A DNA stretch of 56,486 nt from Anaerolineae bacterium (GTDB taxonomy: Bacteria; Chloroflexota; Anaerolineae; Aggregatilineales; JAFGMM01): the NCBI GenBank assembly GCA_034435135.1, contig DAOTXU010000393.1:1-56486 (forward strand), given 5' to 3'. The notes below the pieces were generated by a model. That model had not been told where the DNA came from, did not search any database, and saw only the letters and a list, made by a program, of their open reading frames with translations. Position 1 is the first letter of the stretch. The number at the start of each line of letters is the position of its first letter. Position numbers and translations under genes: made by a program. This document shows, piece after piece, positions 2,475 through 55,280 of the stretch.

Positions 2475-2519
2475 CGAGAGGTCCCAGGGGCGGGTAAAAT
2501 GTCAATGAGCGGTTTCCTC

Positions 2520-2541
2520 GTGAGGCTTAAGCTCACTGTCC
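2520..2541. repeat. Degenerate copy of the GGCTTAAGCC-centred palindromic intergenic element
   Basis: gtgaggcttaagctcactgtcc lies 46 nt after the stop of the first LysM gene. It is a near-palindrome sharing the ggcttaagc core and the tgtcc arm with the copies at 4100, 7117 and 51932. Confidence 0.3.
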
Positions 2542-2567
2542 ACAGTAGCGGACGAAAGGTTCTTTCG

Positions 2568-5117: not shown

Positions 5118-5238
5118 TCGTTCCTGTACGGATAGGAGGGGATGACGGCCCCGTCCTCTCAGATGGGTTTGGGGAAATGCCCTCCTCCGACGAACTCAGC
5201 ATGAAGGCCTCTATCTAGCAATCAGGTAAAAGACTGAT

Positions 5239-24445: not shown

Positions 24446-24695
24446 CGTTGCTCTCTAACCTGCTGCCTGCCGATCACGCGCACCTCGCCTACGCCGGGCG
24501 CGTTGCCCATATGATTCATACCATCGACAGGTATTCTTCAAGTGAAGAGCGCGTGAAAAATATCATACAAACATTTAAAATCGCTGCACCTGGCGTCACA
24601 CATGAACAACTCATCGAGACGGGTTCGTGACCTGCCTTGATCCCCTGAATTTTTCGATGATCTCAAGGGATTAACGCGAGGCAGAAAGGATGGCA

Positions 24696-30201: not shown

Positions 30202-31698
30202 TCACGCACCGTCTGGCGAAGCATAGTCTACTGGCACATCGCGCCGTCTCAACCGCCGCGCCACAAACCGGATGCGGGGCAGGCCAAGCAGGACCAGCGC
30301 GACCAGAATCGCCAGCGGAACCAGGCTCAGCCACCCTTGCAGGCCGAGCAACATACCCAGGTTCCGCGCGATGTCGCCGCGCACCAACGCCGGCAGCGAG
30401 CGCTCGCCCAACGGGTTGGCGCCATAATCCGGAAAATACTGGCCGCCGATGGTCTCCGCCCACACCAGCGCGCCCGAAAGCGCCATGAACGCGGCGATGC
30501 CCAGCCTGGCCCGTCGATGCTCACCCCAGCGGTTGAGCACGAACACAACCGGCAGCGCCAGGAACGGCAGCATCGGCACCAGGTAGCGCGGCCCAACCGC
30601 GTATCCGCCCTGCCACATCACCGACGAGGCGTTGTAAAGGATGTAGACCACCACGCAGACCGTCAACACCCACCACTCCGGGCGGCGTTCGCGCTGCCGC
30701 CACAGGTACCACAGCCCCAGGAAACCGCACAGCAGGAACGGGCTGATGAAAAACAACCCCCTGAACGGGCTGAAGGTGATCCCCCACAGCGCCGGCAGTT
30801 TGGGATAGGTCAGACTCAGGAAGCCCTGGTAGTGCTGCTCTACAAAGTTGGGCGAATACAGGTAGCCAATCGGCAGGGGCGACCGGAAAATCGCCAAGTT
30901 GTATGCGGCCATGACCAGCCCGAAGGGCAGCGCGCCGGCGAACATCTTCCAGACTTCCCGCTTGCGTTCAAGCGCGTACAGCGCATAGAAAAAGAGCGGC
31001 GCGAGCAGCAGCGCTGCCGGGTACTCGCAGATGAGCGCCAACCCGAACAGCGCGCCCACCAGCCACAGCACGCGCGTGGTCGCCTGGCCCTGGCGCAGGC
31101 GGTAGAGCAGCCAGAAAGAGACGAACGCGCCCAGCGCGCTGAGCTGGTGCTGTGCGAAGGACCCTGAATAGGCGAACGCCGGCGTCGCCAGGCCGTAGGC
31201 CAGCGCCAGCCAGAAGGCGTAGATGTCTTTCTCCGCGAAACGCGCCGCGAAGGAGAAAAGCGCCACCCCCAACAGCGCTGACGGCACGGAAATAACGAAG
31301 AAGGTGACCATATAAAGCGCCGCCGCGAAATACACGGCGTCGCGCGTCGCGTCCGGGCCGCCCTCCGTAAGCGTGCTGGTGAACGCCTCACTTTCCGCCG
31401 CCCGTTGGATCAAGCGCTCCACCGGCGGCAGCGCGGCGATCACTTTGAACGCCGCGTACACCGGGACGCCCAGCAACGAAGGGCCGGGCGATTTATCCGT
31501 GTAGTAGTGACCCTCGAAGGATGCGTAGTCTCCCGTGTTGGTGTAGTAGTCGTCGATGCGCAAGGTCCCCTGATCCACAATCGCCAGGATCAGGTCCATG
31601 CGCGAGTTCTGCGCCCAGTCCGCCCAGCGCGGGAAGAAATAGCTGTAGCAAAGCAGCAGCACCAGAAAAAGCGTGATCGCATACCCGCGACGAGACAT
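30202..31698 (-). CDS. 498-aa polytopic membrane protein, candidate GT-C-type glycosyltransferase
   Basis: ORF 30202..31767. ATG 31698 has a GGGGGGTGA SD-like run upstream and gives MSRRGYAITLFLVLLL. The first loop, DYYTNTGDYASFEGHYYTDKSPGPSLLGVPVY, is a conserved-looking extracytoplasmic loop followed by more than 10 helices. Confidence 0.55.
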   Translation of the reverse strand: MSRRGYAITLFLVLLLCYSYFFPRWADWAQNSRMDLILAIVDQGTLRIDDYYTNTGDYASFEGHYYTDKSPGPSLLGVPVYAAFKVIAALPPVERLIQRAAESEAFTSTLTEGGPDATRDAVYFAAALYMVTFFVISVPSALLGVALFSFAARFAEKDIYAFWLALAYGLATPAFAYSGSFAQHQLSALGAFVSFWLLYRLRQGQATTRVLWLVGALFGLALICEYPAALLLAPLFFYALYALERKREVWKMFAGALPFGLVMAAYNLAIFRSPLPIGYLYSPNFVEQHYQGFLSLTYPKLPALWGITFSPFRGLFFISPFLLCGFLGLWYLWRQRERRPEWWVLTVCVVVYILYNASSVMWQGGYAVGPRYLVPMLPFLALPVVFVLNRWGEHRRARLGIAAFMALSGALVWAETIGGQYFPDYGANPLGERSLPALVRGDIARNLGMLLGLQGWLSLVPLAILVALVLLGLPRIRFVARRLRRRDVPVDYASPDGA

Positions 31699-31702
31699 AG
31701 GC

Positions 31703-32665
31703 TCACCCCCCTGTCTTTGAGGCCAACCCCAGCAGGGTGGCGTAGGAGCGCACGTTGTGCTCCGCAAGCTCGCGGCGGGCGCCGTTGCTGACCGAGGCGA
31801 CCATCCGCCAGATCCCCATCTTCAGCCACGAACTAAACCACACAACCGCGCCGTAAATCTGCGCTGCCCTTTTGCCGTAGTGCTTCCTGAAGAACTGCTG
31901 CTTGCTTCCGTAGAGGCGAAGGCGCCTTTGCAGCGAAACCCGGCCTGAGCTGCCGCCGTCGTGATGCACAATCACCGCCTCCGGCTGGTACATCACCAGC
32001 CAGCCGCCTTGCTTGACGCGGTAACACCACTCGGTTTCTTCGGTGTAGAAGAAGAAGGACTCGTCCATAAGGCCCACCGTCTCAACCACGTCCCGGCGGA
32101 TCATCAGCGCCGCCCCCTTAACCCAGTCCACCGGCATGGCGCTGCGCGTGATCGGCGCGAAGGGGTAGTCCCCCAACAGCAAGCGCGTCACCTTTTCGCC
32201 CGCCAGCAACACCGACTCCTTAAAGACGGTCGGGAAGGTGTAAGACGACCGCTGCAGAGTGCTATCGGTGTTCAGTAACTTGGGACCCACGACGCCCACG
32301 TTCAGGTGCATATCGAGGAAACTCATCAGGGCGCGGAGCGCCCCCGGCTTGACCTCAGTGTCGCTGTTGAGGAGCAACAGATAGCGCCCCCGGCTCTCGC
32401 GCATCCCCTGGTTGTTGGCGGCGGCGAACCCCCGGTTCTCCCGGTTCTCGATCAAGCGCACCTGCGGGAAACGCGCGCGCACCATTTCAGGGCTGCCGTC
32501 GTCGGAGGCGTTGTCCACCACGATGACCTCGGTCCTGGGCACGTCCAACGTGTCGTAGAGGGATTGCAGACACGCCGCCAACAGGTCGGAGGCGTTCCAA
32601 CTGACGATGATGATGCTGAGATTCAGCGCATCGACCGGGTTGAGCGGTCGCAGGAGTCCATTCAT
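31703..32665 (-). CDS. Family-2 (GT-A) glycosyltransferase, rhamnosyl/galactosyl-transferase-like
   Basis: ATG 32665 (ATGA overlap with the upstream stop) gives MNGLLRPLNPVDALNLSIIIVSWNASDLL...VIVVDNASDDGS...LLLNSDTEV. Confidence 0.8.
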   Translation of the reverse strand: MNGLLRPLNPVDALNLSIIIVSWNASDLLAACLQSLYDTLDVPRTEVIVVDNASDDGSPEMVRARFPQVRLIENRENRGFAAANNQGMRESRGRYLLLLNSDTEVKPGALRALMSFLDMHLNVGVVGPKLLNTDSTLQRSSYTFPTVFKESVLLAGEKVTRLLLGDYPFAPITRSAMPVDWVKGAALMIRRDVVETVGLMDESFFFYTEETEWCYRVKQGGWLVMYQPEAVIVHHDGGSSGRVSLQRRLRLYGSKQQFFRKHYGKRAAQIYGAVVWFSSWLKMGIWRMVASVSNGARRELAEHNVRSYATLLGLASKTGG

Positions 32666-34137
32666 GTTGTCTTCCTCTGCTTTTTGATAATCTGCTCCAC
32701 GGAGAGAACGCTGCCCATGAACATCCATCCCCACACGGTGTGCCCGAACGCGACAATCCCCTGAGTATACGCGAAGGGGATTACCCAGTCACCCAGACCC
32801 ATGGCGACGGTGACGCCGATTGTGCCGGCGAGCAGGCTTGCCGCCAGCCCGTGCAAGAACCCCCCACGCGGCACCGCGCGCACTACCTGGACTGCCTTCC
32901 AGAGCGCTGTAATGACCAGCGCGACGAGCAGCAACAGGCCCACCACGCCGAACTGCGCCAGCACGTCAATGTAGTTGCTGTGCGTCGCCATCGCATTTTC
33001 GGGGATATACGTCATGTAGTAGGCGGCGTAGCCAGCCGGCCCGGTGCCCAGGAACCAGTGCCCGTTCGTCATCAGCAGGTTCATATTCCATGCCTGGAGG
33101 CGCGTGACTCCTGATGCGTCTTCCTCTTCTGCGAACATCTGCACGTAACGATCGAAGTCTAGCACCATCACAAAGAGCATGATTACGACGGCTATCAGCA
33201 GCAACCTTGGCGATTTCACCGTGACCAGCACGGCGAACACAACCAGAATGAGCACCCAACCGCTCAGCCACTCGCTTACGAGGAAAAACGAGTGGTAAAA
33301 CCAAACCCCCGATATGAAGATCATCAACGCCTTGATCCGCCAGTTCAGACCCTTGTTGAAGAGCACCTGCCCCATGCAGAAGGCCACGACCCACATGCGG
33401 AACAGGCCGAAGGTGTTCAGGTCACCCAGAATCGGAACCCCTCGCATTGAGAAAAGGTGATGCGCCTGACCCACAGTGACCAGCCCGCCCTGAAGCCCGG
33501 CGACGACGAACATCCCCACGATGATGCGAAACCACTTTTCGTCGTGGAGCCGGCTCGCCAGCATCAGACTCGCCCCCACTGAAGCGAGCACAACCAACAG
33601 AGTCGCAAAGCGGGGGTTGAACGATGCGCTCCACATCCCGCTCATGACAACCAGTGGGTCAGGGTAGCTGTTGCTCCACAGGAATGAGAACAGCGCCACG
33701 CCGCCAAACGCCAGCAACAGCGTCGTGATCGGCGACGGGACCAACCCCAACCGTTTCTCAAACAACAGGAGGCGTAACAACCAGATCACGAGGAGCATCA
33801 GCGCGAACAACAGGCTCGCCACCAGCGGGCTGCGCGTGCCGGTCGAGAGGCTGAAGCGCACCCAAAGCGTAATGAAGGAGAAGATGATAATTCCCCACTC
33901 CAGGTAGTAGAGGCTGAACAACGCAATGAGCAGTCCTGCTACTCCTCCGATCATAACCATGAGGTTCTCCGGCGACTGCCACACGACCAGCACCCCCGCC
34001 GCCAGACAAAACGCCCATGCCGCCAGCACCACCAGCGGCCTGAACAACAGGCTGTAGTGCCGGTTAAACACCGCCGCCGGGAGATCAAACAACAACCTTC
34101 CGGGAAGATCGATGAGGACCTGAACTCGTTGGATCAT
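32662..34137 (-). CDS. O-antigen polymerase/ligase-family membrane protein (Wzy-like)
   Basis: ATG 34137 (ATGA overlap with the upstream stop) gives MIQRVQVLIDLPG. More than 10 helices, and the Wzy_C-like segment RLQAWNMNLLMTNGHWFLGTGPAGY...ATHSNYIDVLAQFGVVGLLLL. The 166 upstream codons of ORF 32662..34635 are Arg/Gly-rich and overlap the GT4 gene. Lower GC. Confidence 0.75.
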   Translation of the reverse strand: MIQRVQVLIDLPGRLLFDLPAAVFNRHYSLLFRPLVVLAAWAFCLAAGVLVVWQSPENLMVMIGGVAGLLIALFSLYYLEWGIIIFSFITLWVRFSLSTGTRSPLVASLLFALMLLVIWLLRLLLFEKRLGLVPSPITTLLLAFGGVALFSFLWSNSYPDPLVVMSGMWSASFNPRFATLLVVLASVGASLMLASRLHDEKWFRIIVGMFVVAGLQGGLVTVGQAHHLFSMRGVPILGDLNTFGLFRMWVVAFCMGQVLFNKGLNWRIKALMIFISGVWFYHSFFLVSEWLSGWVLILVVFAVLVTVKSPRLLLIAVVIMLFVMVLDFDRYVQMFAEEEDASGVTRLQAWNMNLLMTNGHWFLGTGPAGYAAYYMTYIPENAMATHSNYIDVLAQFGVVGLLLLVALVITALWKAVQVVRAVPRGGFLHGLAASLLAGTIGVTVAMGLGDWVIPFAYTQGIVAFGHTVWGWMFMGSVLSVEQIIKKQRKTT

Positions 34138-35351
34138 CTCTGCACCTGTGCAGGCGTCCCGGACTCGCGGCAGATGGCGTCCACAAACCGGAGCAGCCGG
34201 TCGCCTACCTTCGACCAATCGTACTGACTTTCCACCAGATGGCGGCCCGCCGCCGCGAGCGAGGCGCGCAAGGCGGCGTCGCCCAACAGACACAGCACGG
34301 CCTCGGCAAACGCCGCCGGCGTATCCGCGATCAAGATGTCCCGCCCCGGAGTCACGTCCAGCCCTTCCGCGCCTTTCGTTGTCGAGACGACCGGGACGCC
34401 GCAGGCCATCGCCTCCAGAATCTTCAGGCGCGTGCCGCCTCCGACACGGAGCGGCGTGACGCAGGCCCAACTCTGCGCCAGGGTCGGCGTGATGTCGTCC
34501 AGGTAGCCGGTGAAACGCACCTGGGGGCGGCGCGGAAACCCGTTCAGGTTCACCCCTTGGGTGCTGCCGGTGATGCGCAATTGCACCGCCGGGCGCGCAG
34601 CGGCCACCAGCGGCAGAATCTCGCCAGCGAACCACGCCGCCGCGTCGTAATTGGCAAAGTACGACAGCGCCCCCGGATAGATCAGCGTGTCCGGCTGCGG
34701 CGGGCCGTAGTCACGCGCATACGCCGCCGTGTCCACCCCGTTCGGGATCACCGCCAGCGGCCTGTCGCCTGGCGCGGCGCGCGCGACGTTTTCCGCCTCA
34801 ACGGGCGAGGCCACCGTGCAGCCGTCGAAAGCCTGGCGTGCGCGGCGTACATACTGCACCAGCTTGAGCCACGTCAGCCCGTAGCGCGCCCGCTTGAGCG
34901 CCGACGCCTGCTTTTCAAACTGGTCGCGGAGAACGGCGACCTCGACTTCCTCGAACAGGCGCTTCACACCCTTCAACGGCAGGGCGTAAGGCGTGGTCGG
35001 CGTCTGAGAAGCAATGACCAGATCGTAGCCGCCGGCCCGCGCTTCAGCCTGTACCAGCCGGTTCATGTCATCGCTATATACGTCCACCAGCCAGCGCGGC
35101 CACGGGTGAAAAAACCCGGCCAGCGCGCGCAGCCGGCCCGGCGCGAAGCGCACCTTAGGCGCGTGATGCACGCGCGCGCAAAAACCTTCAAGCGCAGCCA
35201 CGCGCTCCGGCGTCGCCTCGCCCGGCTCGGCGAAGGCGAGCAGCGTGACCTCGTGCCGCCGGGCAAGTTGCCGCAACAGGTGGTAGACACGCAGCTTGCT
35301 GCCGTTATCCGGCGGATTGGGCCACCACCATGATAAAAACAGGACTTTCAT
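34134..35351 (-). CDS. Family-4 (GT-B) glycosyltransferase
   Basis: ATG 35351 gives MKVLFLSWWWPNPPDNGSKLRVYHLLRQLARRHEVTLLAF. C-terminal GGGTRLKILEAMACGVPVVST. Confidence 0.8.
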   Translation of the reverse strand: MKVLFLSWWWPNPPDNGSKLRVYHLLRQLARRHEVTLLAFAEPGEATPERVAALEGFCARVHHAPKVRFAPGRLRALAGFFHPWPRWLVDVYSDDMNRLVQAEARAGGYDLVIASQTPTTPYALPLKGVKRLFEEVEVAVLRDQFEKQASALKRARYGLTWLKLVQYVRRARQAFDGCTVASPVEAENVARAAPGDRPLAVIPNGVDTAAYARDYGPPQPDTLIYPGALSYFANYDAAAWFAGEILPLVAAARPAVQLRITGSTQGVNLNGFPRRPQVRFTGYLDDITPTLAQSWACVTPLRVGGGTRLKILEAMACGVPVVSTTKGAEGLDVTPGRDILIADTPAAFAEAVLCLLGDAALRASLAAAGRHLVESQYDWSKVGDRLLRFVDAICRESGTPAQVQR

Positions 35352-36597: not shown

Positions 36598-38106
36598 TCA
36601 CGTCTGCGGTCTAAGCCGTCTTCCAACCATCTCGATCAGGCGTGTGCGCTCATCCCGGCTGTACGCGCCGGAGAACCAGACCGCAATTAAATACAACACT
36701 CCCGTAACCGGAAGGGTGACAAACAGGCCAAGACCTGCGTTGCGCATCACCAGCAGCAGCAGTCCCATCCCCAGAGCGGCGATAACGACGCGCAGCGACT
36801 TAAAGAATTGAAGGCCGCTGCCCATCCGCGTCCGAAAGAGGAGATAGAATAACACCAAACCGACTGCATCGGTCAGCACCGTAGCGAAACACGCGCCGAC
36901 AAGCCCCAGGGGGGGGATAAGCACGGCGTTCAGAACCACGTTGACGACTCCGACGAAGACGATGATGGTCGCTGAAGCTTTCTCTTGTCGGATCGCCATC
37001 GCCATGCTCGCTGCAAACGACGTATAGGTCACAAGCGGCACATCCCAGATTAAGATCGCAAACGCCAGCGCTGCGGGGAAAAGCCCTGGGTAGAGGAACC
37101 CGATGATCTGATCGCCCAGCAACGCGCCGCCAATCGCAATCGGCAACCCAAGCGTCAGGAGGACGCGCACGGTCATGTAGTACCAGGGACGGACCGACTC
37201 CGGGTTCCTGGCGTAGTCGTGCGCCAGGGTCGGAACGATAGCCGCGTTGAAAGCGCCAAACAAGTGAAGCGTCTGCGTCAGCCGGTAGGCTGTGTTATAC
37301 CACCCCACTGCCTCATCCGGGACGTAGGCGCTCAGGAAGACGGTATCGACCCGGAACGTCAACGACAGCGCGAGTTGAATGGCTCCGAAAGGCAAGCCAC
37401 CCCGAATGAGCGCCCACCACGCTCGGGGCGAGACGCGAAACCGCCCTGGTCCCAACTGGTGACGCCGGATAGCGATCAACTCTAGGCTGATCATGATGGG
37501 CATGACATAGAACTGCGGCACCAGCAACCACAGCCAGTTCAGGCCCAACAGCAGAAAAACGGCGACGGAGGCCATGTACAGGACCTGCATCACGACGTTG
37601 AGGACCGAGACGTAATCGAGGTGCTCATTGCCTGTAAGCACACTGATCAGGGGCGCATAAATCACCTGGAAAAAATACCCTGCCGTGTAAAGGGCAATGC
37701 CGATGACGATCTCGGTCGAGTATCCGTAAGCGACGCCTGCCACGACGGTAATGATAGAGGCGGCGGTCGCCATGACGATGCGCAGGGCTACTGTGTCCCA
37801 AAAGAGTTCAATCAACTTGCTGCGGTCGCGGGCGACCTCGCGGGCGAGATACTGGACGATGCCCAGGTCGCCGATGAACGCGAAAATACTCACCCATGCC
37901 AGGACAATCGAATAGCGCCCAAATTGCTCGCCGCCCAATGTGTTGATGACATAGACGTTGAACAGAAACCCGACCACCTTCAAGGTGAACTGAGCGCCCA
38001 GGCCGAATGCCGTGTTTCGCGCGATAATCCTGCCGGAGCGTTCTCTAGCCCCAGGTTGCGCTGCGATTGGCTGGCTCTTCCCATCCGCTGCTTGTTGCTC
38101 AAACAT
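36598..38106 (-). CDS. wzx: Wzx-type oligosaccharide flippase (MOP superfamily, polysaccharide biosynthesis protein)
   Basis: ATG verified at 38106. IARNTAFGLGAQFTLKVVGFLFNVYVINTLGGEQFGRYSIVLAW is a typical Wzx N-terminus. About 14 helices, 502 aa. Lower GC. Confidence 0.8.
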   Translation of the reverse strand: MFEQQAADGKSQPIAAQPGARERSGRIIARNTAFGLGAQFTLKVVGFLFNVYVINTLGGEQFGRYSIVLAWVSIFAFIGDLGIVQYLAREVARDRSKLIELFWDTVALRIVMATAASIITVVAGVAYGYSTEIVIGIALYTAGYFFQVIYAPLISVLTGNEHLDYVSVLNVVMQVLYMASVAVFLLLGLNWLWLLVPQFYVMPIMISLELIAIRRHQLGPGRFRVSPRAWWALIRGGLPFGAIQLALSLTFRVDTVFLSAYVPDEAVGWYNTAYRLTQTLHLFGAFNAAIVPTLAHDYARNPESVRPWYYMTVRVLLTLGLPIAIGGALLGDQIIGFLYPGLFPAALAFAILIWDVPLVTYTSFAASMAMAIRQEKASATIIVFVGVVNVVLNAVLIPPLGLVGACFATVLTDAVGLVLFYLLFRTRMGSGLQFFKSLRVVIAALGMGLLLLVMRNAGLGLFVTLPVTGVLYLIAVWFSGAYSRDERTRLIEMVGRRLRPQT

Positions 38107-38178: not shown

Positions 38179-39249
38179 TCAAGGGATTTCAACGAAGTCG
38201 AGATGCTGGATATAGGTGAATTGCTCCGGCGGGTTCAGTCTTCCGTCTTGATGCACGTCGCTGTAATAGTGCAGACTGCGGTAGAAAGCCTGCTGCGGCG
38301 TGAGCGCTTGCAGCGTCCCCGCCAGAACATCCTTCCGAACAAAAAAAGCGTTGGTGCCGGTAGAGTCACAGCCCACCAGCGCGTAGCCTTTCTCGTGGGC
38401 GAGTTTGGTTAACGCTGTCAAGGAAGCGCCGAAGTAGAAACCGCTGTAGTGCCGGGTGAAGCGGTTGAGGCCGGGCTGATAGGGTATGGTCAGCGAGCGC
38501 TCAGGCCCATACACCGGGTTGTATTCCACCACCATCACGCGCGGCCTCACCACGTCGATGGCCTTCCAGACCCAGTAATCGTTGCTGTCAATATCGATGC
38601 TGAACAGATCAGGTTCGGGGACCACCTGATTCTCCAGGAGCGTCTGGTTGATGTTCTCCGGCGTGATGGTACGTTGAACAATCTTCACCTCGTCACGCCG
38701 CGCACCCAGCATCGCGTCGTAGTATTCACGCGCGCTCAGGGTATCGAACTCGTCCATCTCCATCAGCAGACCCCTCCAACCAAAGTTGATCGCCAGGTTG
38801 GCGGAATTGCACTCCCGGCCATCCTCAACCCCGAACTCCACGAAACAGCGATTGGTCGTGCCAACCTGGGAGAAAATGTAGAGCAGGATGCCATCTTCGC
38901 CGTTTTGCGAGTAGACGCTCAGTTCGTACCTGTTGATGACCGATTTCGGGTGGCACTCCGGCGCCATGTCCCGGTACCGGTCGTACAGCATCAGCGCGGT
39001 GATGCGCTGCATGTTCCGCTCCAGTTGCTCAACACGCCACTGCGCTTTTCGCAAGAATCGGAGCAAACGAAACGTGGTCAGCGGAAGAACAATCGGCAGC
39101 AGCCACTTCGCCGGTCGTTTCATCGCTCTGAACACGAATTTCATCACCGACCGAGCCAGGACGACCACCGTGCTCTGCCGTTCAGACGGCAGGCTCTTGG
39201 GTCTCTGCCTCTCCGGTGTAAGCGTCCTTGAACTGTCAAGCTGGTCCAT
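38179..39249 (-). CDS. Protein of unknown function with an N-terminal membrane anchor; possibly an FkbM-like/class I methyltransferase-fold enzyme
   Basis: ORF 38179..39297. ATG 39249 has AGGAGG 6-7 nt upstream; ATG 39144 (MKFVFRAMKRPAKWLLPIVLPL) is the alternative. Motifs YSQNGEDGILLYIF and CFVEFGVEDGRECNSANL remind me of FkbM-type methyltransferases, but I cannot confirm this. Confidence 0.45.
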   Translation of the reverse strand: MDQLDSSRTLTPERQRPKSLPSERQSTVVVLARSVMKFVFRAMKRPAKWLLPIVLPLTTFRLLRFLRKAQWRVEQLERNMQRITALMLYDRYRDMAPECHPKSVINRYELSVYSQNGEDGILLYIFSQVGTTNRCFVEFGVEDGRECNSANLAINFGWRGLLMEMDEFDTLSAREYYDAMLGARRDEVKIVQRTITPENINQTLLENQVVPEPDLFSIDIDSNDYWVWKAIDVVRPRVMVVEYNPVYGPERSLTIPYQPGLNRFTRHYSGFYFGASLTALTKLAHEKGYALVGCDSTGTNAFFVRKDVLAGTLQALTPQQAFYRSLHYYSDVHQDGRLNPPEQFTYIQHLDFVEIP

Positions 39250-39451
39250 CCACAGCCTCCTGCTGCGTTTTGGGTCCAACGGTACCAGTGGTGCCAAACG
39301 CCTGCTGGACAGCGGGCGTCAGGATGTTGAAGCTGGAGATCATCCCGTTCGGGTACATCGAACCGGCGAGCGAGTCCAGGCAGGCAAAAGTGTTCCGCCA
39401 GCCGTCCCAGTTCACGATCACCATCGCCGCGTTGGGCCGGGTCGTCGTCAC
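39236..39451 (-). pseudogene. 71-codon remnant of a family-2 glycosyltransferase N-terminus
   Basis: The translation (M/V)TTTRPNAAMVIVNWDGWRNTFACLDSLAGSMYPNGMI aligns residue-for-residue with MTATKPKVAIVLVNWNELHHTLPCLESLAGLQYPNVWTI of the intact GT2 at 41316..42239. Where DNGSTDNS should follow it reads FNILTPAV, and it stops 30 codons later. The GTG start overlaps the AsnB-like stop (GTGA). Confidence 0.55.
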
Positions 39452-41256
39452 GCCTTCCTCCTACCCTGCGCCAGCACCCGCTTCTTGAACAGGTCAAACG
39501 TGAGCAGATTCCAGGTGAACCAATCCGGCTGCTTGAGCTTCTGCTCGAAGTCGGCCTGATCCAGAAAGGCCGGCCGCTCGATGGCTTGCACCCGGTCGCG
39601 CAGGGGGCCGCTGCACATCCACGCCAGCAGATCTTCATAGAAGCCGCTGGTCATCTTCGTCTTATCCAGCCGGTAGGTGGATTTTGACTCCAGGATCGTC
39701 TTCGGAATGGGCTTGACGCGATGCTTGAAGTAATAGCGCTGCCCTGGGTGGACGGCCATGACCGCCGTGAGCAGGGTAGTGTCTATATATGGAAAGGCCA
39801 ATTCCCGCCCAAAGGCCAGCATAGCCTGTTGCCAGAGCGCCGCCGTGTCGTACTGGTTGCTGAGCGTCGCCACGACGTGCGCCTTCTCGTTCAGGTCTTG
39901 GGTGTCCAGGTACTTGACTTCCAAAGCCTGGCGGTAAACCAGCGCCTCGCGGACTTTCGCCTGTCCGAACGCCCGGCGCATCACGTCCCAATCGGTGTAT
40001 GCGCTGACGTTCAGCGGGTAGTGCGGCGAGGCGGGGTCGTCGAGGCTTTCGAGCACGTCGGCCATGTAGCCAGCGCCGTAGGACTTGGACTGCCAGACGG
40101 GCGCGAGCGCCGCGCTCACCCAACGCAACGCCTTCGGCGGCCAGTGGCGGTATCGCGTCTGCGCCTGATGGAACTCCTTCGCCTTCGACGCGCCGTGCAG
40201 CACGTCGGCCCCGCCGCCCATGAACAGGAAGGTGAACCCGTTCGCCTGTGCATACCGCGCCACCGGGATCGCGCAAGGCACCGGCTCGTGGTGTGGCGGC
40301 TGCCCCAGGATTTCGATAGCCTGGACCAGCAGATCGGCGTACTGTACTGGCGTCACCTCAACGAGGTGGTGGTCGGCACCCAGGATGCCGGCTGCCTCAT
40401 ACGCATATTCCACCTCGCGGCTGAAGAGCGGCGTCATCATCGCATAGCTGAGGGTCGGAAAAGGCTTCGGCGCGGCAGGGTGCTGGTTGATCGCCAGTTG
40501 CAGCGTCGAAGAGTCCACGCCTCCGGACAGCATCGTGGTCGCGCGCCGCTCCCCGCCGTTGACGTAACAGCCCATCACCGCGACCATTTGTTCAAAGTAG
40601 TGCGCAACGGTCGCGTCGTCCACGGGCCGGTAGACGTCGGGGCGATAGGCGCGCAGGTCGCGCACGAGCGCGCTGCCGAAGTCGCCTTCGCGCCAGGTGA
40701 AGACCGCGCCGTGATCGACCCGGTACACGTCGCGCAGGTAGGTTTGATGGCCCGGCACTGACCGGAAGATGAAGTGCAGCGGCACCGCTTCGGGGTTCAG
40801 TTGCGGGCCATCCGACGTGCCGTCGAGCAGGTCGGCCATCAGCCGCAGGTTATTGGCGCACAGAAAATGATCACCGTCGGTCCAGTAATAGAGTTGCGGC
40901 ACACTGAGCAGGGTCTTAAACGCGCAGAAATGCGGCGCCCGCTTGCTGAAACACAGCAGCGCCGCGTTACCCTCGATGACCTCGTATTGCGCGCCCGTCG
41001 GCGTGATCCAGCCGCGTTCGAGGATGGTTTCCGTGGAGAGCAGCGCGCTCCCATCATGAACCTGCCCCAACTTGATGCAGATCGTTGCGTCGTTCTCGGC
41101 CACGTCGGCATAGACGGGCATAGTGTAGAAAAAGTAACCGCGCTCGCCGATGCGCACTGTGCACACGCCGTCCAGGCTGTTCACCTGTGCTTCCAGTTCG
41201 AGCGGCGCGGGCGTTGTGATCCAGCCAAAGGCCAGAAAGGGATGCTCATTAGCCAT
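39448..41256 (-). CDS. Asparagine synthetase B-like amidotransferase/adenylating enzyme lacking the N-terminal Cys nucleophile
   Basis: ATG 41256 (AGGGGA about 10 nt upstream) gives MANEHPFLAFGW. PP-loop TMLSGGVDSSTLQ. Overall length is typical of AsnB. Confidence 0.75.
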   Translation of the reverse strand: MANEHPFLAFGWITTPAPLELEAQVNSLDGVCTVRIGERGYFFYTMPVYADVAENDATICIKLGQVHDGSALLSTETILERGWITPTGAQYEVIEGNAALLCFSKRAPHFCAFKTLLSVPQLYYWTDGDHFLCANNLRLMADLLDGTSDGPQLNPEAVPLHFIFRSVPGHQTYLRDVYRVDHGAVFTWREGDFGSALVRDLRAYRPDVYRPVDDATVAHYFEQMVAVMGCYVNGGERRATTMLSGGVDSSTLQLAINQHPAAPKPFPTLSYAMMTPLFSREVEYAYEAAGILGADHHLVEVTPVQYADLLVQAIEILGQPPHHEPVPCAIPVARYAQANGFTFLFMGGGADVLHGASKAKEFHQAQTRYRHWPPKALRWVSAALAPVWQSKSYGAGYMADVLESLDDPASPHYPLNVSAYTDWDVMRRAFGQAKVREALVYRQALEVKYLDTQDLNEKAHVVATLSNQYDTAALWQQAMLAFGRELAFPYIDTTLLTAVMAVHPGQRYYFKHRVKPIPKTILESKSTYRLDKTKMTSGFYEDLLAWMCSGPLRDRVQAIERPAFLDQADFEQKLKQPDWFTWNLLTFDLFKKRVLAQGRRKA

Positions 41257-41315
41257 GGATACGTTTCCCCTGATGCTGTTCAACACCACCCAATTCCTGT
41301 AATCTCACCCTAAAC

Positions 41316-44720: not shown

Positions 44721-46631
44721 TCACACGACCCCTTCCACGCCCGCCGCGACCGGCGCGGGGTCGCCGTCAAAGAGCAAACGCATCATCATCTCGAACGACA
44801 TCAGCGGCGCGAGCCGCCCGATGGTGTGCAACTCATGCCCCGCCAGGTGCCGCGCCCACAGCGAGCGCACCAGGTCAGGGTTGAAGATGCCGCGCGCCAG
44901 CGTGCGCTCGTCGAAGAGCAGCCTCTCACTCCACGCGCGCAGGTCGGTGCGCAGCCATTCCTCGTAGTCCGCGTAGAGGACGACGGTCTCAGTCGCGTCG
45001 CCGCCCACGTACCGGCGCACGAGCTTCCCCGCCTTGCGCGCGACCTTGTGGGCCAGGACGTACCAGCGCCGGTCGGTGATCGGCACGCTGTTGCTCGCGT
45101 AAGGAACCATGGCCAGGTGCGGCATCTCGCGGTTGATGACCGCCGCCTGCAACCGCCCGCCCAGGCGCATCTCCAACGGCAGCCCCAGGACGAAATCGAT
45201 CAGGGGGTAGTCGCCGAACGGGTAGCGCATCTCGATGTGCGAGCGCATGAAATTCGCGTAGTTGTGCGTCAGCCGGGTAGTGTGGTTCCAGGCCTGCCAG
45301 TAGTTCAGCCGCCGTTCGGGGCTGAACTTGAGGTATGCACACGCCTCCCGGCGCAACGACTCAAACGCCAGCTCGTTAAGGCCGGCGTAGGCGTCGGTGA
45401 AAAGCAACCTGGCTTCCGCTTCCAGGAAGCCCGGCCATGACATCACGCCCGACATGGCGTGGAACAAATGCGTCTCCCAAGCCACATCGTCCATCGAGTG
45501 CGCCATGGGCGGCATCAACTCGTAGGGTCGGGGGGCGAGAAACTCGTCGCCGGCCCAGCCGGTCAGGTTGAAGTCGATGGTCCCGCGCATGGCCGGCAGG
45601 GTAGTGATGCCGTGCATATGCACCCAGTTGTGAAGCCCCTCGGTCAGCGCCAGGTGAAAGGGCGCGTTCGCCTCCACCCACCTGCCGTCGGTGAACTCAA
45701 AGTAATAGTGCACGCTGCCCGCACGGTCGGCCAACTGCCGGGCGTAGATCACATCGGTGCTCTGGCGCTGCCCGAAGTTCACCGTCGTGACACACCGACC
45801 GCCCTCCGTCGCCAACCCCAACGCCAGCCGTGAGTCCAGGCCGCCGCTCAGGTAGAGGCCGGGACGCAGCCCGCCGTCCAACAGCCGGTCCATCGCCGCG
45901 CGCAAAAGCCGCGCGGTCTCGGCGACGGCATCCTCGAACGTCACCGACGGCGGCGGCGCGGGAATGTGATCGTAGTCCCAGTACCGCGTCAGCGTGAGCG
46001 CGTCGGCGCGCGCGTCGTAGCGCAGGATGCTGGCGTAGGGCAGTATCTTCACCCCTTCAAAGAAAGTCTTGTCGCCCAGCAAGCGCTGAAAGCGCAGGCA
46101 CTCCGCCGCCGCCGCCAGGTCGAGCCGCTTCTCGAAACCCCGGTCGCACGCGAAGGCTTTCAGTTCCGGCGCGAACACCAGCCGCCCGCCGTAGTGCGCG
46201 TAGAACGTCTGGTAGCGCCCCAGCCGGTCGTTGACCAGCCATAGCGTTTGGGTCGTCCCATCCCAAATGCACGTCACAAACGGCCCGTGCAGCCGGTTCA
46301 CGAAGCCAACGCCGTGCGCCTGGTACAGGCGCAGCGTCAGCTCCTCGAAAGTGTCGGTTTGGAAAACGACGCCTTGCGTTTCCAACTCACGCCGGAGCGG
46401 GGCAGCGTCGTAGAGTTCGCCGGTGAAGAAAACGACCAGGTCGCCGTCGCAGGCGGGTTGAGGGCAGCGGTTGAAAACGCCGATGCCGACCCGCCCAAGC
46501 GCGGCGTGAGGCGCGACGTGGGTATCCACCTGGTACCAGGAGCGATGCGTCATCGCCGCCGTCATCGCGGTTAACCGATCGGTCTGTGCGTTCGTTTCAT
46601 CGCCGCTACAGACGCCAAAGACGCCGCTCAT
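44721..46631 (-). CDS. Asparagine synthetase B-like amidotransferase with Ser in place of the catalytic Cys2
   Basis: ATG AGC GGC GTC TTT GGC at 46631 gives MSGVFGV, against the canonical MCGI.G. PP-loop LYLSGGLDSRLALG. 636 aa. Confidence 0.8.
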   Translation of the reverse strand: MSGVFGVCSGDETNAQTDRLTAMTAAMTHRSWYQVDTHVAPHAALGRVGIGVFNRCPQPACDGDLVVFFTGELYDAAPLRRELETQGVVFQTDTFEELTLRLYQAHGVGFVNRLHGPFVTCIWDGTTQTLWLVNDRLGRYQTFYAHYGGRLVFAPELKAFACDRGFEKRLDLAAAAECLRFQRLLGDKTFFEGVKILPYASILRYDARADALTLTRYWDYDHIPAPPPSVTFEDAVAETARLLRAAMDRLLDGGLRPGLYLSGGLDSRLALGLATEGGRCVTTVNFGQRQSTDVIYARQLADRAGSVHYYFEFTDGRWVEANAPFHLALTEGLHNWVHMHGITTLPAMRGTIDFNLTGWAGDEFLAPRPYELMPPMAHSMDDVAWETHLFHAMSGVMSWPGFLEAEARLLFTDAYAGLNELAFESLRREACAYLKFSPERRLNYWQAWNHTTRLTHNYANFMRSHIEMRYPFGDYPLIDFVLGLPLEMRLGGRLQAAVINREMPHLAMVPYASNSVPITDRRWYVLAHKVARKAGKLVRRYVGGDATETVVLYADYEEWLRTDLRAWSERLLFDERTLARGIFNPDLVRSLWARHLAGHELHTIGRLAPLMSFEMMMRLLFDGDPAPVAAGVEGVV

Positions 46632-46708: not shown

Positions 46709-48694
46709 TCAAGCGGGTTGCTCTGGGGACCCCTTCTCTGTCGGTCCCAGTTCGAGCGCACCAAGGTCTGTGAAGGGCAACACTCGCGGCGACTCGCTGC
46801 CGTTCGGTTGGGGAACCAGGGCCGGCGTCCGCGCCGCGCCGTCCCTCCGCGCCTCGACAGGCAAGTCCTCCTCGCCCAGCTCCTGATTCAGAAAGCCCTT
46901 CAGGCTACCTTCAGAGACCCACCAGCGGAACAGTTTGCGCATCCCCGACAGGCGTCCGGCCTTGCACCATTGGATCGCCGTGGATTTCCGCACCCCTAGC
47001 CGCTGGGCGATGTGCGCGGCAGAGAAGTAGACGGTCCCATCCCTTCGCCTCCAGATATAGCCCACAGGGAGACGGTGCAGGAACGTGAGCCGCCGATAAA
47101 TGCGCCCGGCCAGGCCAGTGGCCGCCTCGTCGGCGTCGTAGCGGTAGCGGTAGCCGCTGCGCTGTCCTTCGAGGGTGATCGGCGCGCCAGTCATCGCCAC
47201 ACCCAACAGGTTAACGTTGCCGGGCGCGAGCAGGCGCTCTTTGGCCTTGCGCATCATCCGGCGCGTGACCCTGCCCACACGCGCGATCAGCACTGTGCCC
47301 TCGGCCAGCGCGGCCAGGATGACTGCATCAGGGGCGACCAGCACCGGCGGGGTGTCGATCACAATGTAATCGTAGCGGGTCTTAAGCAGCGCAAGCAGCG
47401 TGGCGGCTTCGGGCGAACCGAGCAGGGCGGCAGGGTCGCGCCGCGCCACGCCGGTGGTGAGCAGAGACAGGTGGGGAGTCCCGGTCTCGCGGATGGCCTT
47501 GTTCAACAGCGCCTCGCGCGCGTCGGGTTGGACGGTCAACAGGTCGGCCAGCCCGACGATGTTGGGGAGGTCGAAAAGCTCGTTGAGCGAAGGGTGGCGC
47601 ATGTCGCCGTCGATGATGAGCGTGCGCATCCCGGCCAGGGCGCTGGCGACGCCCAGGTTCGCTACCGTGGTGGTCTTGCCGTCCTTCGGGCGCGGGCTGG
47701 TAATGAGCACCACACGCACGCTGTGCGGCGACCGGGTGAGCGCGATGCGCGCGCGCAACTGGCGCACGGCCTCAGCTTTCTGCGAGTGTGGACGATAGCG
47801 CGTGACCACCGGGTCGCGTCGTGAAGGCGGCGCCAGCACCCCCAGCGTCGGCAGCCCTTCCACCTCGTCGATGCCCTTGTCGCGCCAGCGCAGGGTATCG
47901 TCGAAGAATTCCAACAAGACCACAGCGCCTCCGGTCACCAGCAGACCAAGCGTTGCCCCTAAGAGCACGTTCATGGTCTTGTTCGGCGCGACCGGCGTGG
48001 GATTCGGGTAGGGGTGCTCGACCCACATCACCACGCTGGCTGGGTTGGTCGCGGTCAACTGCGCATATTGGACGACGATGGCCTGGTTATCGACCAGCGC
48101 CGTCTCAAGCTGGTTAATCAAGTCCTGCGCCTCGGCGATCTCGGCTGCCGAAGTCATCTCAAGCATGGCCTGGCGCTGTGCGTCGATCTGCTGCTGGAGC
48201 GCCTGCGACCGTTGTTCCGCCGCCGCCTGCGCTTCCAGCCATTGGCGGCGGGTATCCGTGTCGGCGAGCGGGTTTTGCTCTTCAACAAGCTGCCGCCCCA
48301 GCTCTTCGGCGTTGGCGGCGGCCTGCAAGGGGTCGGGGTCATAGACCAGGATTTCCAGCAACTGGGCGTCCGCGACAACGTTCACCTGGATGCGCGCGGC
48401 CAGCTCGTCAGGCCCATAGTCCAGGCCCCGCGCCTCGATCACCGCCTGCGTGATGGGGCGACGCCTGACATACTCGGCGTAGATGTAGGCCAGGCTGCGG
48501 CTCAAGGCCAACGATGTCGGGTTCACATTTACCTCGTGGAAGGACGCTCCGACCGAGACCGTGGCTTTCGACAGATACAACGGGACCTGCTTCGACGTAA
48601 GGTAATAGCTGATGCCGCTGGCGATCACAACCCCGACCAACACCAACCACCACCAGCGTCGGGCGACGCCCCACAGAGTGACTTGCGCTTTCAT
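46709..48694 (-). CDS. Polysaccharide co-polymerase (Wzz/PCP-2a) fused to a BY-tyrosine kinase and to a C-terminal excisionase-type HTH domain
   Basis: ATG 48694 (AAGGG 8 nt upstream). TM1 WWWLVLVGVVIASGISYYL, a coiled-coil periplasmic region, and TM2 VLLGATLGLLVTGGAVVLL. Walker A SPRPKDGKTT, A' LIIDGDMRHP, B YIVIDTPPV. Tyr cluster GYRYRYD. Then AAHIAQRLGVRKSTAIQWCKAGRLSGMRKLFRWWVSEGSLKGFL (about 46883-47029). Confidence 0.8.
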   Translation of the reverse strand: MKAQVTLWGVARRWWWLVLVGVVIASGISYYLTSKQVPLYLSKATVSVGASFHEVNVNPTSLALSRSLAYIYAEYVRRRPITQAVIEARGLDYGPDELAARIQVNVVADAQLLEILVYDPDPLQAAANAEELGRQLVEEQNPLADTDTRRQWLEAQAAAEQRSQALQQQIDAQRQAMLEMTSAAEIAEAQDLINQLETALVDNQAIVVQYAQLTATNPASVVMWVEHPYPNPTPVAPNKTMNVLLGATLGLLVTGGAVVLLEFFDDTLRWRDKGIDEVEGLPTLGVLAPPSRRDPVVTRYRPHSQKAEAVRQLRARIALTRSPHSVRVVLITSPRPKDGKTTTVANLGVASALAGMRTLIIDGDMRHPSLNELFDLPNIVGLADLLTVQPDAREALLNKAIRETGTPHLSLLTTGVARRDPAALLGSPEAATLLALLKTRYDYIVIDTPPVLVAPDAVILAALAEGTVLIARVGRVTRRMMRKAKERLLAPGNVNLLGVAMTGAPITLEGQRSGYRYRYDADEAATGLAGRIYRRLTFLHRLPVGYIWRRRDGTVYFSAAHIAQRLGVRKSTAIQWCKAGRLSGMRKLFRWWVSEGSLKGFLNQELGEEDLPVEARRDGAARTPALVPQPNGSESPRVLPFTDLGALELGPTEKGSPEQPA

Positions 48695-48823
48695 AACATT
48701 GCCCTTTACAACGATGCCCTTCGCATTCGGTCCAGTCTTCGGTTTACGCGCCCCCTCGATGGTGCAGCTCACCCCGACCGGTACGCCAGCCGGGGGTGGG
48801 TGCCGCGCGCGGCTGGATTGCGC

Positions 48824-50500
48824 CTAACTGCGCACCCAGCCCAGCGTCTCTAGGCCGACTTCAATCGCCGACTTAACGACAGCCAGGTTGTTAAACATCT
48901 TGAGATAGGTCAGGATCGGACCAGGGCGGAAAGCCCACTCACGAAACGCGCGTCTCTGGTGGTATTCGAGTTGTTCTTTTGTAAGACCAGGATAGTCCAG
49001 GGCCGTCGATTTGTCCATATCCACTGATTCCCAGCGCTCGCCGGGGCGGAACCAGTCGTTGTCCATCACGTCGAAGAAGAACGGCGTGCCGGGGTACGGG
49101 GCGGCGATGTGGAACAGCGCGATGTCCAGCGGCAGGCTCTTGGCGAAGTCGATGGTCTCCTGGATGGTCGCTTCGGTCTCGCCGGGCAAGCCGATGATGA
49201 AGTAGCCCCAGTTCTTGATGCCGGCCTCCCGCGCGGCGGTCAGGCTCTCGCGGGCGCGCGCAGCGGTGGTGCCCTTCTTCGCGCGCTTGAGAATTTGCTC
49301 GTTGGCGCTCTCGATGCCCCAAGAGATCAGGTAGTTGCCGGCGCGCGCCATCATGCGCAGCATTTCCCGGTCCACATAGTCCACGCGGCTGTTGCACGTC
49401 CACTTGATCTTGACATTTTCGGTCAGCAGCAGGTCGCAGATACCCATCACCTGGTCGCGGTTGACTGTGAAGAGATCGGCGTACATGTGGATGTTGTGCA
49501 CGCCCAGTTCCTTGAGAATCTTGATCTCGTCCACGATGTTGCGCGGTGAGCGCAGCCGGATCGAGTACTGGTAGCTCACGTGCTTGATGCAGTACCGGCA
49601 GCCGGCGGTGCAGCCGCGGCTGGTGACAATGAACGTGAACGGCCCCTTAATCATCGGCATTCGCTGCTTTTCCAGCGGCAGCAGATGGTGAAGCGGGAAG
49701 GGCAGGTCGTCCAGGTTGGGGAAAAACGGGCGGTCAGGGTTGACGACAGTCTCGCCGCCGCGCCGCCACACCAGCCCCTTGATGTGACTCAGGTCCGGGT
49801 TGCCCGGCCCCTTGAAGCCCTCCGGCGCGCGGCTCCACTCGTATTCCGGGTCGGCGTCGCGGAACAGCTTGTCGATCTCGGCGCGGGGATGGACGCCCTC
49901 GAAGTAGTCCATCAACTCGCGCAGGGTCAGTTCCGGCTCGCCGCGCAGGATGTAGTCGAGCGCGGGGAAGTCTTCCATCGTCAGGCGCGGGATGGGGGTC
50001 ACGTGCGTGCCGAAGGCGATGGTTTTCGCCCCCAGGCTCTTTGCCAGGAAGACGCCGTACATGTCGTTGGTCAGCGTTGGCGCGGTAACCTGGGTGAGGT
50101 AATACTTCGGCTGCTTGTCGCGCAGAATCCCCTCGAATTCGGCCCAACTCATGCGCTCGGCGTTGGCGTCGATGATCTCCAACGTGTACTCCGGCGCGAG
50201 CAACGCCGCCAACTGCGCCAGCGACACCTGCGGCCAGATCATGTTCTCGCGCGAGCGCCGTCCGACGCGGTGCTGGCTGCGGATCCAGATTTTCCCGTCC
50301 GGCGTGGGCGGGTTGACCAGCAGGATGTCTACCGCGTCTTTGGGGCGCGGCGGCCTGAGTCTGCGGAACGCCTCGTCGGCGTCGGGCGATTTCGCCATCG
50401 GGAGCCTGGCGACGCGACGGGTCCCCAGGTTGCGCGAGATGTCGCTTTCGACGTTACCGTTGCCTCCCGTGTCCACCTTCTTCTCGAAAAGGTCAACCAT
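48824..50500 (-). CDS. B12-binding-domain radical SAM enzyme (class B rSAM, methyltransferase-like)
   Basis: ATG 50500 with AAGGAG 8 nt upstream. N-terminal cobalamin-binding-type domain (ILLVNPP...EIIDANAE...AKTIAFGTHVT) and the cluster motif VTSRGCTAGCRYC (CxxxCxxC). Confidence 0.8.
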   Translation of the reverse strand: MVDLFEKKVDTGGNGNVESDISRNLGTRRVARLPMAKSPDADEAFRRLRPPRPKDAVDILLVNPPTPDGKIWIRSQHRVGRRSRENMIWPQVSLAQLAALLAPEYTLEIIDANAERMSWAEFEGILRDKQPKYYLTQVTAPTLTNDMYGVFLAKSLGAKTIAFGTHVTPIPRLTMEDFPALDYILRGEPELTLRELMDYFEGVHPRAEIDKLFRDADPEYEWSRAPEGFKGPGNPDLSHIKGLVWRRGGETVVNPDRPFFPNLDDLPFPLHHLLPLEKQRMPMIKGPFTFIVTSRGCTAGCRYCIKHVSYQYSIRLRSPRNIVDEIKILKELGVHNIHMYADLFTVNRDQVMGICDLLLTENVKIKWTCNSRVDYVDREMLRMMARAGNYLISWGIESANEQILKRAKKGTTAARARESLTAAREAGIKNWGYFIIGLPGETEATIQETIDFAKSLPLDIALFHIAAPYPGTPFFFDVMDNDWFRPGERWESVDMDKSTALDYPGLTKEQLEYHQRRAFREWAFRPGPILTYLKMFNNLAVVKSAIEVGLETLGWVRS

Positions 50501-50570
50501 GTCAGAACTCCTTGAGAATGTCCCCTCATTTGGACTTGATGTGATGATGACTGCGAAATCCATTTGCGCC

Positions 50571-55054: not shown

Positions 55055-55251
55055 TGCAGTTATCCCCTTCCTTAATGGTGTGTATCGGTTGCGCATGAGC
55101 ACCCTGATCGAGCCGATACAGGCATATAATAGTGCGATATGGTGACTTTCTGGTGAATTATTCCTGAAAATTACCTACTTTCCCTAGAGTTTGATAGAAA
55201 CGGTTTGGATTTTTCGGAAGTCGAGTCATTAAAAGTCAAGCGCACGCGCCT

Positions 55252-55280
55252 TTGACAATCCGCACCCGACACGCTATGCT
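55252..55280 (+). promoter_or_regulatory. Candidate sigma-70-type promoter TTGACA-17-TATGCT that would yield a leaderless mRNA for the CE4 gene
   Basis: ttgaca at 55252-55257, a 17-nt spacer, and tatgct at 55275-55280. ATG 55288 lies 8 nt after the -10 element. No SD is visible before either candidate ATG. Confidence 0.35.

Follow-up and report, generated by a model that had tools for sequence, protein, structure and literature searches.

A single polypeptide encoded in the genome of an Anaerolineae bacterium (Chloroflexota) combines a membrane co-polymerase and bacterial tyrosine kinase (BY-kinase) with a winged helix-turn-helix (HTH) domain, which is located C-terminal to the tyrosine cluster of the kinase. 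The gene lies in a stretch of 56,486 nucleotides (assembly GCA_034435135.1, contig DAOTXU010000393.1), called the window in the following; all coordinates are those of this whole stretch and residue numbers refer to the 661-amino-acid (aa) product. The list of open reading frames (ORFs) contains a minus-strand ORF at 46709..48772, and the ATG at 48694 is taken as its start because the N-termini of the relatives agree at this point (MKFQ, MKSQ or MNFK). The complete coding sequence (46709..48694, minus strand) thus comprises 661 aa and a stop codon, and consists of a PCP-2-like module, a BY-kinase, a Tyr cluster, a linker, a winged HTH and an acidic tail. A single ORF with this domain order and these coordinates had been proposed in an initial annotation made from the letters of the DNA, and the ORF list as well as the positions of the motifs bear it out. 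That annotation had expected about 150 residues past the Tyr cluster, and 141 are counted (residues 521–661). No stop codon or frameshift splits off the HTH; there is one frame, which is kept across relatives of 30–64 % identity. Furthermore, the GC content of the whole ORF (0.68, 0.47 and 0.82 at codon positions 1, 2 and 3) is what a genuine gene shows. The AlphaFold model of the whole chain, for which 48 sequences were used, reaches a mean pLDDT of 84.7 and is confident throughout, except for residues 508–527 around the Tyr cluster and residues 616–661 in the tail (pLDDT <50).

The assembly of capsules and exopolysaccharides has its master regulators in the BY-kinases. Their catalytic domain ends in a flexible tail bearing the Tyr cluster; as long as this cluster is unphosphorylated they form an octameric ring via an ExxRxxR motif, and phosphorylation leads to dissociation into monomers (PMC9800525). 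In the window protein the cytoplasmic catalytic domain covers residues 272–513 (47156..47881, minus strand) and was recognised by sequence as well as by fold. The NCBIfam model TIGR01007 matches residues 310–515 with 145.3 bits (cutoff 108.05), and the best sequence match in the Protein Data Bank (PDB) is the CapA1/CapB1 chimera of Staphylococcus aureus (4jlv, E 9e-32). The modelled kinase domain superposes on the same CapA1B1 structure with a TM score of 0.94 and an rmsd of 2.0 Å and on Wzc (3la6) with a TM score of 0.79–0.85. All of the motifs which the initial annotation had listed are present in the order given there: Walker A SPRPKDGKTT (residues 333–342, 47669-47698), Walker A' LIIDGDMRHP (residues 359–368, 47591-47620) and Walker B YIVIDTPPV (residues 443–451, 47342-47368), all on the minus strand, and then the Tyr cluster. 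The residues G339-K340-T341, D362/D364/R366 and D447-T-P-P are invariant in 16 relatives that carry the fused HTH. A ring motif as defined for the family (PMC9800525) is formed by E308-x2-R311-x2-R314 (47753-47773, minus strand), in which both arginines are invariant in the same 16 relatives and the first position is Glu or Asp. Since the catalytic residues and the ExxRxxR motif are conserved, the protein is regarded as a working kinase and not as a pseudokinase; by extrapolation from Wzc and CapB, it is predicted to autophosphorylate and to assemble into rings. The Tyr cluster GYRYRYD (residues 514–520, 47135..47155, minus strand) comprises Y515, Y517 and Y519, is modelled as disordered (pLDDT 40–47) and is internal instead of C-terminal. 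Two to five tyrosines are found at the equivalent site in all of the 18 aligned relatives.

The N-terminal part corresponds to the co-polymerase module. A short basic cytoplasmic N-terminus is followed by transmembrane (TM) helix 1 (about residues 14–34, 48593..48655; modelled helix 15–35), whose RWWW motif is invariant among the relatives. The extracytoplasmic domain (residues 35–240, 47975..48592) is modelled as an alpha/beta base with a long helical hairpin, and TM helix 2 spans about residues 241–265 (47900..47974; modelled helix 239–264); both helices were placed by a hydropathy scan, and all three elements are read from the minus strand. Sequence profiles match this region only faintly: GNVR (Pfam, 15 bits) and TIGR01006 give weak matches at residues 225–287, whereas Pfam Wzz (PF02706) does not match the window protein at E values up to 1 and matches several relatives weakly. 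Of the proposed "Wzz-type two-TM module", the two TM helices and a Wzc-like fold have thus stood, and the Pfam Wzz assignment has not. In a Foldseek comparison the full-length model matches full-length cryo-EM structures of Wzc with E 1e-27 over about 600–670 columns, and a phmmer alignment to Wzc covers residues 70–518. The module is therefore placed in PCP-2 by its modelled fold, and the reading as co-polymerase plus kinase stands despite the missing Wzz match because of the full-length fold match to Wzc and the kinase fold match to CapA1B1.

Beyond the Tyr cluster the chain continues with a poorly conserved linker (residues 521–545, 47060..47134, minus strand; pLDDT about 73–76), which contains two short basic helices at 528–540, and with the winged HTH (residues 546–605, 46880..47059, minus strand). 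This domain is of the excisionase/BldC/MerR-like type. Modelling of the C-terminal part, which the initial annotation had suggested, gives a confident winged HTH (pLDDT >90) with strands 547–549 and 555–558, helices 559–566 and 570–579, wing strands 584–587 and 590–594 and a last helix 595–605. It superposes on BldC with a TM score of 0.75–0.82 and an rmsd of 1.2–1.3 Å, and Foldseek matches it to BldC, Xis, RacA and the N-terminal domain of MerR (probability 0.97–1.0). A profile of the family searched against the PDB likewise finds Xis of mycobacteriophage Pukovnik, BldC and RacA. Pfam HTH_17 (PF12728) aligns from end to end of the profile with residues 556–604 (46883-47029). The initial annotation had proposed an HTH_17 fit at exactly this place; its position, the profile of the relatives and the fold are in agreement with it, and the window copy taken singly stays below the Pfam threshold. 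The C-terminal regions of all 18 aligned relatives match HTH_17 (E ≤ 0.01, best 9.6e-18), and free as well as fused relatives pass the excisionase DNA-binding model TIGR01764 with 48–57 bits (cutoff 28.8). The HTH assignment therefore holds despite the sub-threshold score, since it is supported by the matches of the relatives to both models, by the PDB profile search and by the BldC-like fold. By fold and family transitivity the added domain belongs to the excisionase/HTH_17 group, and it is neither a member of the BldC family nor a classical MerR protein. The BldC family model NF033787 (cutoff 77 bits) does not match the window copy and gives 22–27 bits for relatives, although the domain may still act like BldC. 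A classical MerR coiled coil or effector domain is absent; the chain is disordered after helix 595–605 and no further Pfam domain is matched. The cytoplasmic HTH is strongly basic (pI 11.3, net charge +9), and the tail behind it (residues 606–661, 46712..46879, minus strand) is acidic (pI 4.4), predicted to be disordered (pLDDT <50) and rich in Pro and Glu (9 Pro, 7 Glu and 3 Asp), as had been proposed; its length is 56 aa and not 57. The tail also carries a motif VLPFT.LD..ELE (residues 638–649, 46748-46783, minus strand), which recurs only in its two nearest full-length relatives (P0002, P0003) and may be a docking motif.

Proteins with the same domain order recur in independent assemblies. 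A homologue search across 5.8 billion proteins brought up about two dozen proteins of 34–64 % identity that combine kinase and HTH, and an exhaustive profile search in 1.84 billion cluster representatives (50 %-identity clusters) gave about 44 kinase-HTH fusions among the best 150 representatives, either full-length or truncated by contig ends. In total, at least 30 full-length HTH-bearing relatives come from independent samples, and all available source names and genome titles point to Chloroflexota (Anaerolineae, "Chloroflexi bacterium", Caldilineaceae). The architecture is thus not a peculiarity of one contig but the mark of a sizeable Chloroflexota family, which was already present in public databases without being remarked upon. 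Its members bear PF12728 tags from automatic pipelines and are called "capsular exopolysaccharide synthesis family protein" or "tyrosine autokinase" there. In a neighbour-joining tree of the kinase domains, calculated without support values, 30 HTH-bearing proteins form one clade, whereas BY-kinases outside this clade have tails of mostly 15–77 residues. Mean pairwise identity falls from 0.45 in the kinase to 0.37 in the HTH, 0.22 in the linker and 0.14 in the tail. The HTH is thus conserved nearly to the level of the kinase, and the fusion is read as being under selection.

Some members of the wider family deviate from this scheme. A subclade nested in the HTH-bearing kinase clade (P0021, P0025, P0030-P0047) retains neither the HTH nor the Tyr cluster, has a Walker A of the form GRREGRT with Lys replaced by Arg, and possesses another conserved acidic extension of about 140 aa (…LSQGLSNELEKEINRVWPEG…LRLIEQRFGGEVAEEW); judged from these sequences, it has the appearance of a pseudokinase whose output module was exchanged. 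Three further proteins from the representative search, P0121 (623 aa), P0123 and P0143 (1312 aa), consist of 4–11 tandem HTH_17/MerR-like repeats, i.e. covalent arrays of the same small fold; in P0121 eight repeats are followed by a hydrophobic C-terminal region. The closest match of a genome scan with a 6-sequence alignment as query, in the Anaerolineae metagenome-assembled genome (MAG) FR_5 (L001 6001-7951, 69 % identity), has its kinase gene divided into two overlapping ORFs. Neighbouring genes of this locus are broken likewise, and the database protein P0006 (397 aa) is a truncated call; the splits are probably frameshift errors of the assembly.

The strongest functional clue is provided by versions in which kinase and HTH are separate. 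Free HTH genes were counted only if they were seen in their locus context (L016-L022); the small "free" HTH matches of the representative search were not accepted as split genes, since at least some of them are fragments of fused proteins on short contigs (P0199 mirrors the tail of P0018). P0026, a kinase of 540 aa without an HTH that is nested inside the fused clade, is preceded by a gene for an 89-aa HTH_17 protein which overlaps the kinase start by 14 nt (L016/L017). This small protein matches the profile of the fused domain with a hhalign probability of 99% (E 2e-18), has 50% identity with the fused HTH of P0018 and carries the same signature T-x-x-R-W-C-x-x-G-(R/K)-L-P-A. L016 contains another HTH_17 gene, which finds no match in the subfamily profile and is unrelated. 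Free copies also adjoin a radical SAM gene in L018, L020/L021 and L022 (E 1e-18 to 1e-20 against the subfamily profile), and L018 contains both forms, a free 79-aa HTH_17 protein (5001-5240) and a kinase with fused HTH (7486-9453), with a Tricorn/PD40-like gene between them. The free versions have 80–90 aa and lack a membrane-binding segment. The HTH subfamily is thus a recurring member of the glycan cluster, either free or fused, and is evidently able to act as an autonomous small protein of the size of BldC or Xis. The conserved fusion together with the split versions in sister clusters indicates that kinase and HTH work together.

The residues by which BldC contacts DNA are T27, T29, R30, W31 and K33 on the recognition helix and basic residues of the wing (PMC5859096). 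According to the profile alignment, their equivalents are T572, position 575, W576, K578/R581 and R586/K587/R590. W576, which corresponds to W31, and R581, which corresponds to BldC K36, are found in 16 of 16 relatives, whereas T27 is kept as Thr and R30 as Arg in 11 of the 16. A membrane-tethered DNA-binding output, gated by the kinase cycle and exerting feedback control on the transcription of the glycan cluster, is ranked first among the possible functions and is given a little less than an even chance. The HTH would contact DNA with the helix and wing positions equivalent to those of BldC. Because it lies about 25 residues past the Tyr cluster of a kinase that is predicted to cycle, DNA binding would be gated by the ring/phosphorylation cycle: the unphosphorylated octameric ring would present up to eight tethered HTHs with high avidity for arrayed sites, and in the phosphorylated state they would be scattered, with negative charge added next to the basic domain. 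The acidic tail may be a pseudo-substrate competing with DNA. Most likely, the protein would then feed back on transcription of the glycan cluster, much as the membrane-tethered regulators ToxR and CadC control their genes. A more far-reaching form of signalling by one polypeptide, in which the ring-to-monomer cycle would switch up to eight tethered BldC-like domains and so transmit the state of the export machine to DNA, either to cluster promoters or to the chromosome and without a separate substrate transcription factor, is possible but rather doubtful.

Two variants of this mechanism were rejected. Phosphorylation of a Tyr within the HTH, as in the FatR model, does not apply since no Tyr is conserved in the domain, and separate production of the HTH from an internal start is contradicted by the lack of a Met or start context before residue 546.

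Several results weigh against feedback control by a tethered DNA-binding domain. The window copy of the HTH scores 21.5 bits against HTH_17 in the whole protein and 24.1 bits in the isolated tail, with a gathering score of 27, and has no match in NCBIfam. Position 575 is Gln in the window, and the base-reading Arg is Gln or Lys throughout its subclade. The two AT-rich intergenic regions which the initial annotation had proposed as targets, 55055-55275 and 24446-24695, revealed no operator-like repeat in scans for direct and inverted repeats (covering 55100-55255 and 24440-24700), and an array of ATTRAW hexamers described below is absent from the window, with one mismatch allowed, and from the other 20 loci. 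The linker of about 25 residues gives a membrane-tethered HTH a limited reach, and a cognate phosphatase is missing: neither a phosphatase nor any other recognisable regulator was found in the window. MerR-like folds also serve as protein-binding modules, and CbpM is among the fold matches. In addition, DNA binding is suggested by homology and a structural model, and ring formation is carried over from Wzc and CapB. As no operator was found, the direct support extends only to the statement that the domain likely binds DNA.

Applied to the DNA ahead of the free HTH genes in L016 and L018, the same scans yielded nothing of use. The only phased array was seen in L020 (2870-2965, the same as L021 2507-2602), where two groups of ATTRAW hexamers at exactly 10-bp spacing, the groups lying 60 bp apart, are found about 360 bp upstream of the free HTH_17 gene of the cluster. 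This is a possible binding array, which is not generalisable because it is absent from the window and the other 20 loci.

The lack of a specific operator and of a conserved base-reading Arg in the window's subclade would also fit a nucleoid or chromosome tether. In this reading the HTH would bind DNA rather unselectively, or at a few chromosomal sites, and physically hold the membrane polysaccharide machine to the nucleoid, which would keep envelope synthesis in step with the segregation of chromosomes or with division. The domain has one of its closest matches, by sequence as well as by fold, in RacA, which anchors DNA to the cell pole, and a precedent in trans is known from Streptococcus pneumoniae: RocS, a membrane-bound HTH protein with non-specific DNA binding, is a partner of the BY-kinase CpsD and depends in its action on CpsD phosphorylation; CpsD also interacts with ParB (PMC4574921). 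However, the HTH of RocS is annotated as another type (IPR000047), so that the likeness is an analogy and not a homology; a MerR-type assignment of it was rejected, as IPR000047 is a different, general HTH signature. Moreover, the free 80–90-aa versions in the glycan cluster, lacking a membrane segment, look like a cluster-dedicated regulator and not like a global organiser, and the tether is considered unlikely. The free versions could also speak for a regulator that is released by cleavage in the region of the linker and Tyr cluster, yielding a soluble BldC/Xis-like protein whose dose would be set by the production of the export machine. The HTH is flanked by the disordered stretches 508–527 and 616–661 (pLDDT <50), the same domain occurs as a free small protein in sister clusters, and L018 has both a free and a fused copy. 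Yet neither a protease gene nor a recognisable cleavage motif was seen in the window, the sequence of the linker is not conserved and no internal start codon precedes the HTH, and such a release is thought improbable.

Hardly more probable is a module for protein interaction or autoregulation, which would bind a partner, the phosphorylated Tyr cluster or the acidic tail and would tune ring assembly instead of acting on DNA. The protein-binding MerR-like fold of CbpM in its complex with CbpA (3ucs) is among the fold matches, a very basic domain lies beside a phospho-acceptor cluster and an acidic tail, and the window copy is divergent. Nevertheless, the positions equivalent to the DNA contacts of BldC (the Trp, Arg/Lys and the basic residues of the wing) are the most conserved ones, and the free orthologues pass an excisionase DNA-binding model (TIGR01764) above its cutoff (48–57 vs 28.8 bits). 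Finally, the kinase might have been joined with a small HTH gene downstream by a mistake in sequencing or assembly or by the loss of a stop codon. Split arrangements occur in relatives (L016) and frameshifts affect the same gene in the MAG of L001, but independent samples have yielded at least 30 full-length proteins with the fused frame, about 44 cluster representatives (50 % identity) have it as well, the split HTH gene lies upstream of the kinase and not downstream, and the codon-position GC bias is gene-like across the whole ORF. The probability of such an artefact is therefore negligible.

Compared with known systems, the window protein shares the two-TM co-polymerase and the cytoplasmic P-loop tyrosine autokinase with Wzc and Etk of Escherichia coli and CapA/CapB of S. 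aureus, as well as Walker A, A' and B, the ExxRxxR motif, the flexible Tyr cluster and the location in a Wzx/Wzy glycan cluster. Its outer domain is short (about 205 aa) like that of Gram-positive CapA, which is consistent with CapAB as the best kinase match. However, the chain of Wzc, Etk and CapAB ends at the Tyr cluster, whereas here the cluster is internal and followed by linker, winged HTH and acidic tail. The statement of the initial annotation that characterised BY-kinases end at the Tyr cluster holds for those that were checked (PMC9800525; CapB chain end). Its assumption that the architecture had not been described is in accordance with the literature search, which covered neither most subscription journals nor the architecture tables of InterPro and turned up no account of a BY-kinase to which a DNA-binding domain is fused.

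The fused HTH has the same fold and topology as BldC of Streptomyces, Xis of phages and integrative conjugative elements and RacA, lacks a MerR coiled coil or effector domain like these, and has the T..RW..G(R/K)L recognition helix and the basic wing in common with them; unlike them, it is covalently joined to a membrane kinase. Head-to-tail multimerisation on direct repeats may not be shared by the fused domain. With CpsD and RocS or ParB, a capsule BY-kinase is likewise linked, both functionally and physically, to a membrane-associated HTH protein whose behaviour depends on phosphorylation of the Tyr cluster, but in trans through separate proteins, and the role of RocS is in chromosome segregation and nucleoid protection. 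In ToxR, CadC and TcpP the polypeptide that senses or acts in the envelope also anchors a DNA-binding domain on the cytoplasmic side of the membrane; these proteins have an N-terminal OmpR-type winged helix, a single TM helix, no kinase and no phospho-acceptor cluster. The BY-kinase PtkA of Bacillus subtilis is reported to phosphorylate FatR on a Tyr inside its HTH and thereby to control DNA binding (PMC3814354). The substrate is a separate protein in this case, and the fused HTH has no conserved internal Tyr.

The gene is embedded in a minus-strand block extending from about 14.2 to 55.1 kb of the window that forms a Wzx/Wzy-type glycan cluster. It includes a flippase (36598-38106), a Wzy_C protein (32662-34635) and an initiating sugar transferase (17142-18731), besides nucleotide-sugar enzymes, many glycosyltransferases, acyltransferases, two AsnB-like enzymes and a radical SAM enzyme. 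The order hexapeptide acyltransferase, glycosyltransferase family 2 (GT2), radical SAM enzyme and kinase-HTH is common to the window, L013, L014 and L018, with relatives at 36–61 % identity. The radical SAM enzyme (48824-50563, minus strand; about 540–580 aa) is found near or adjoining the kinase gene in the window, L013, L014, L015, L018, L020 and L022 and is an unusual conserved partner in a glycan cluster; its relative in L013 shows a weak match to a B12-binding domain. The two asparagine-synthase-like genes (39448-41289 and 44721-46631, both minus strand), a glutamine amidotransferase domain being detectable only in the second, may serve the amidation of a sugar acid. At one end of the window two adjacent paralogous genes (873-2474 and 2499-4043, plus strand) each encode a LysM domain and a SdrD_B-like domain. 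Four large ORFs within the cluster, all on the minus strand (24696-25991, 28325-30142, 30202-31767 and 38179-39297), have gene-like codon bias and no Pfam match at E values up to 0.001.

To our knowledge, the route from the phosphorylation cycle of BY-kinases to the rest of the cell is poorly understood, and the links to DNA we know of run via separate proteins, i.e. phosphorylated transcription factors or the pneumococcal RocS and ParB. We are also aware of almost no genetics in Anaerolineae. The conserved covalent fusion together with the split versions represents a natural experiment and a compact system in which gating of DNA binding by ring assembly and phosphorylation can be addressed. 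Membrane-tethered DNA-binding proteins are of few kinds, to which the family adds a further one; it also points to a cluster-dedicated regulator in Anaerolineae. If the proposed DNA-binding output is true, a machine for polysaccharide polymerisation and export would report its own state straight to DNA.

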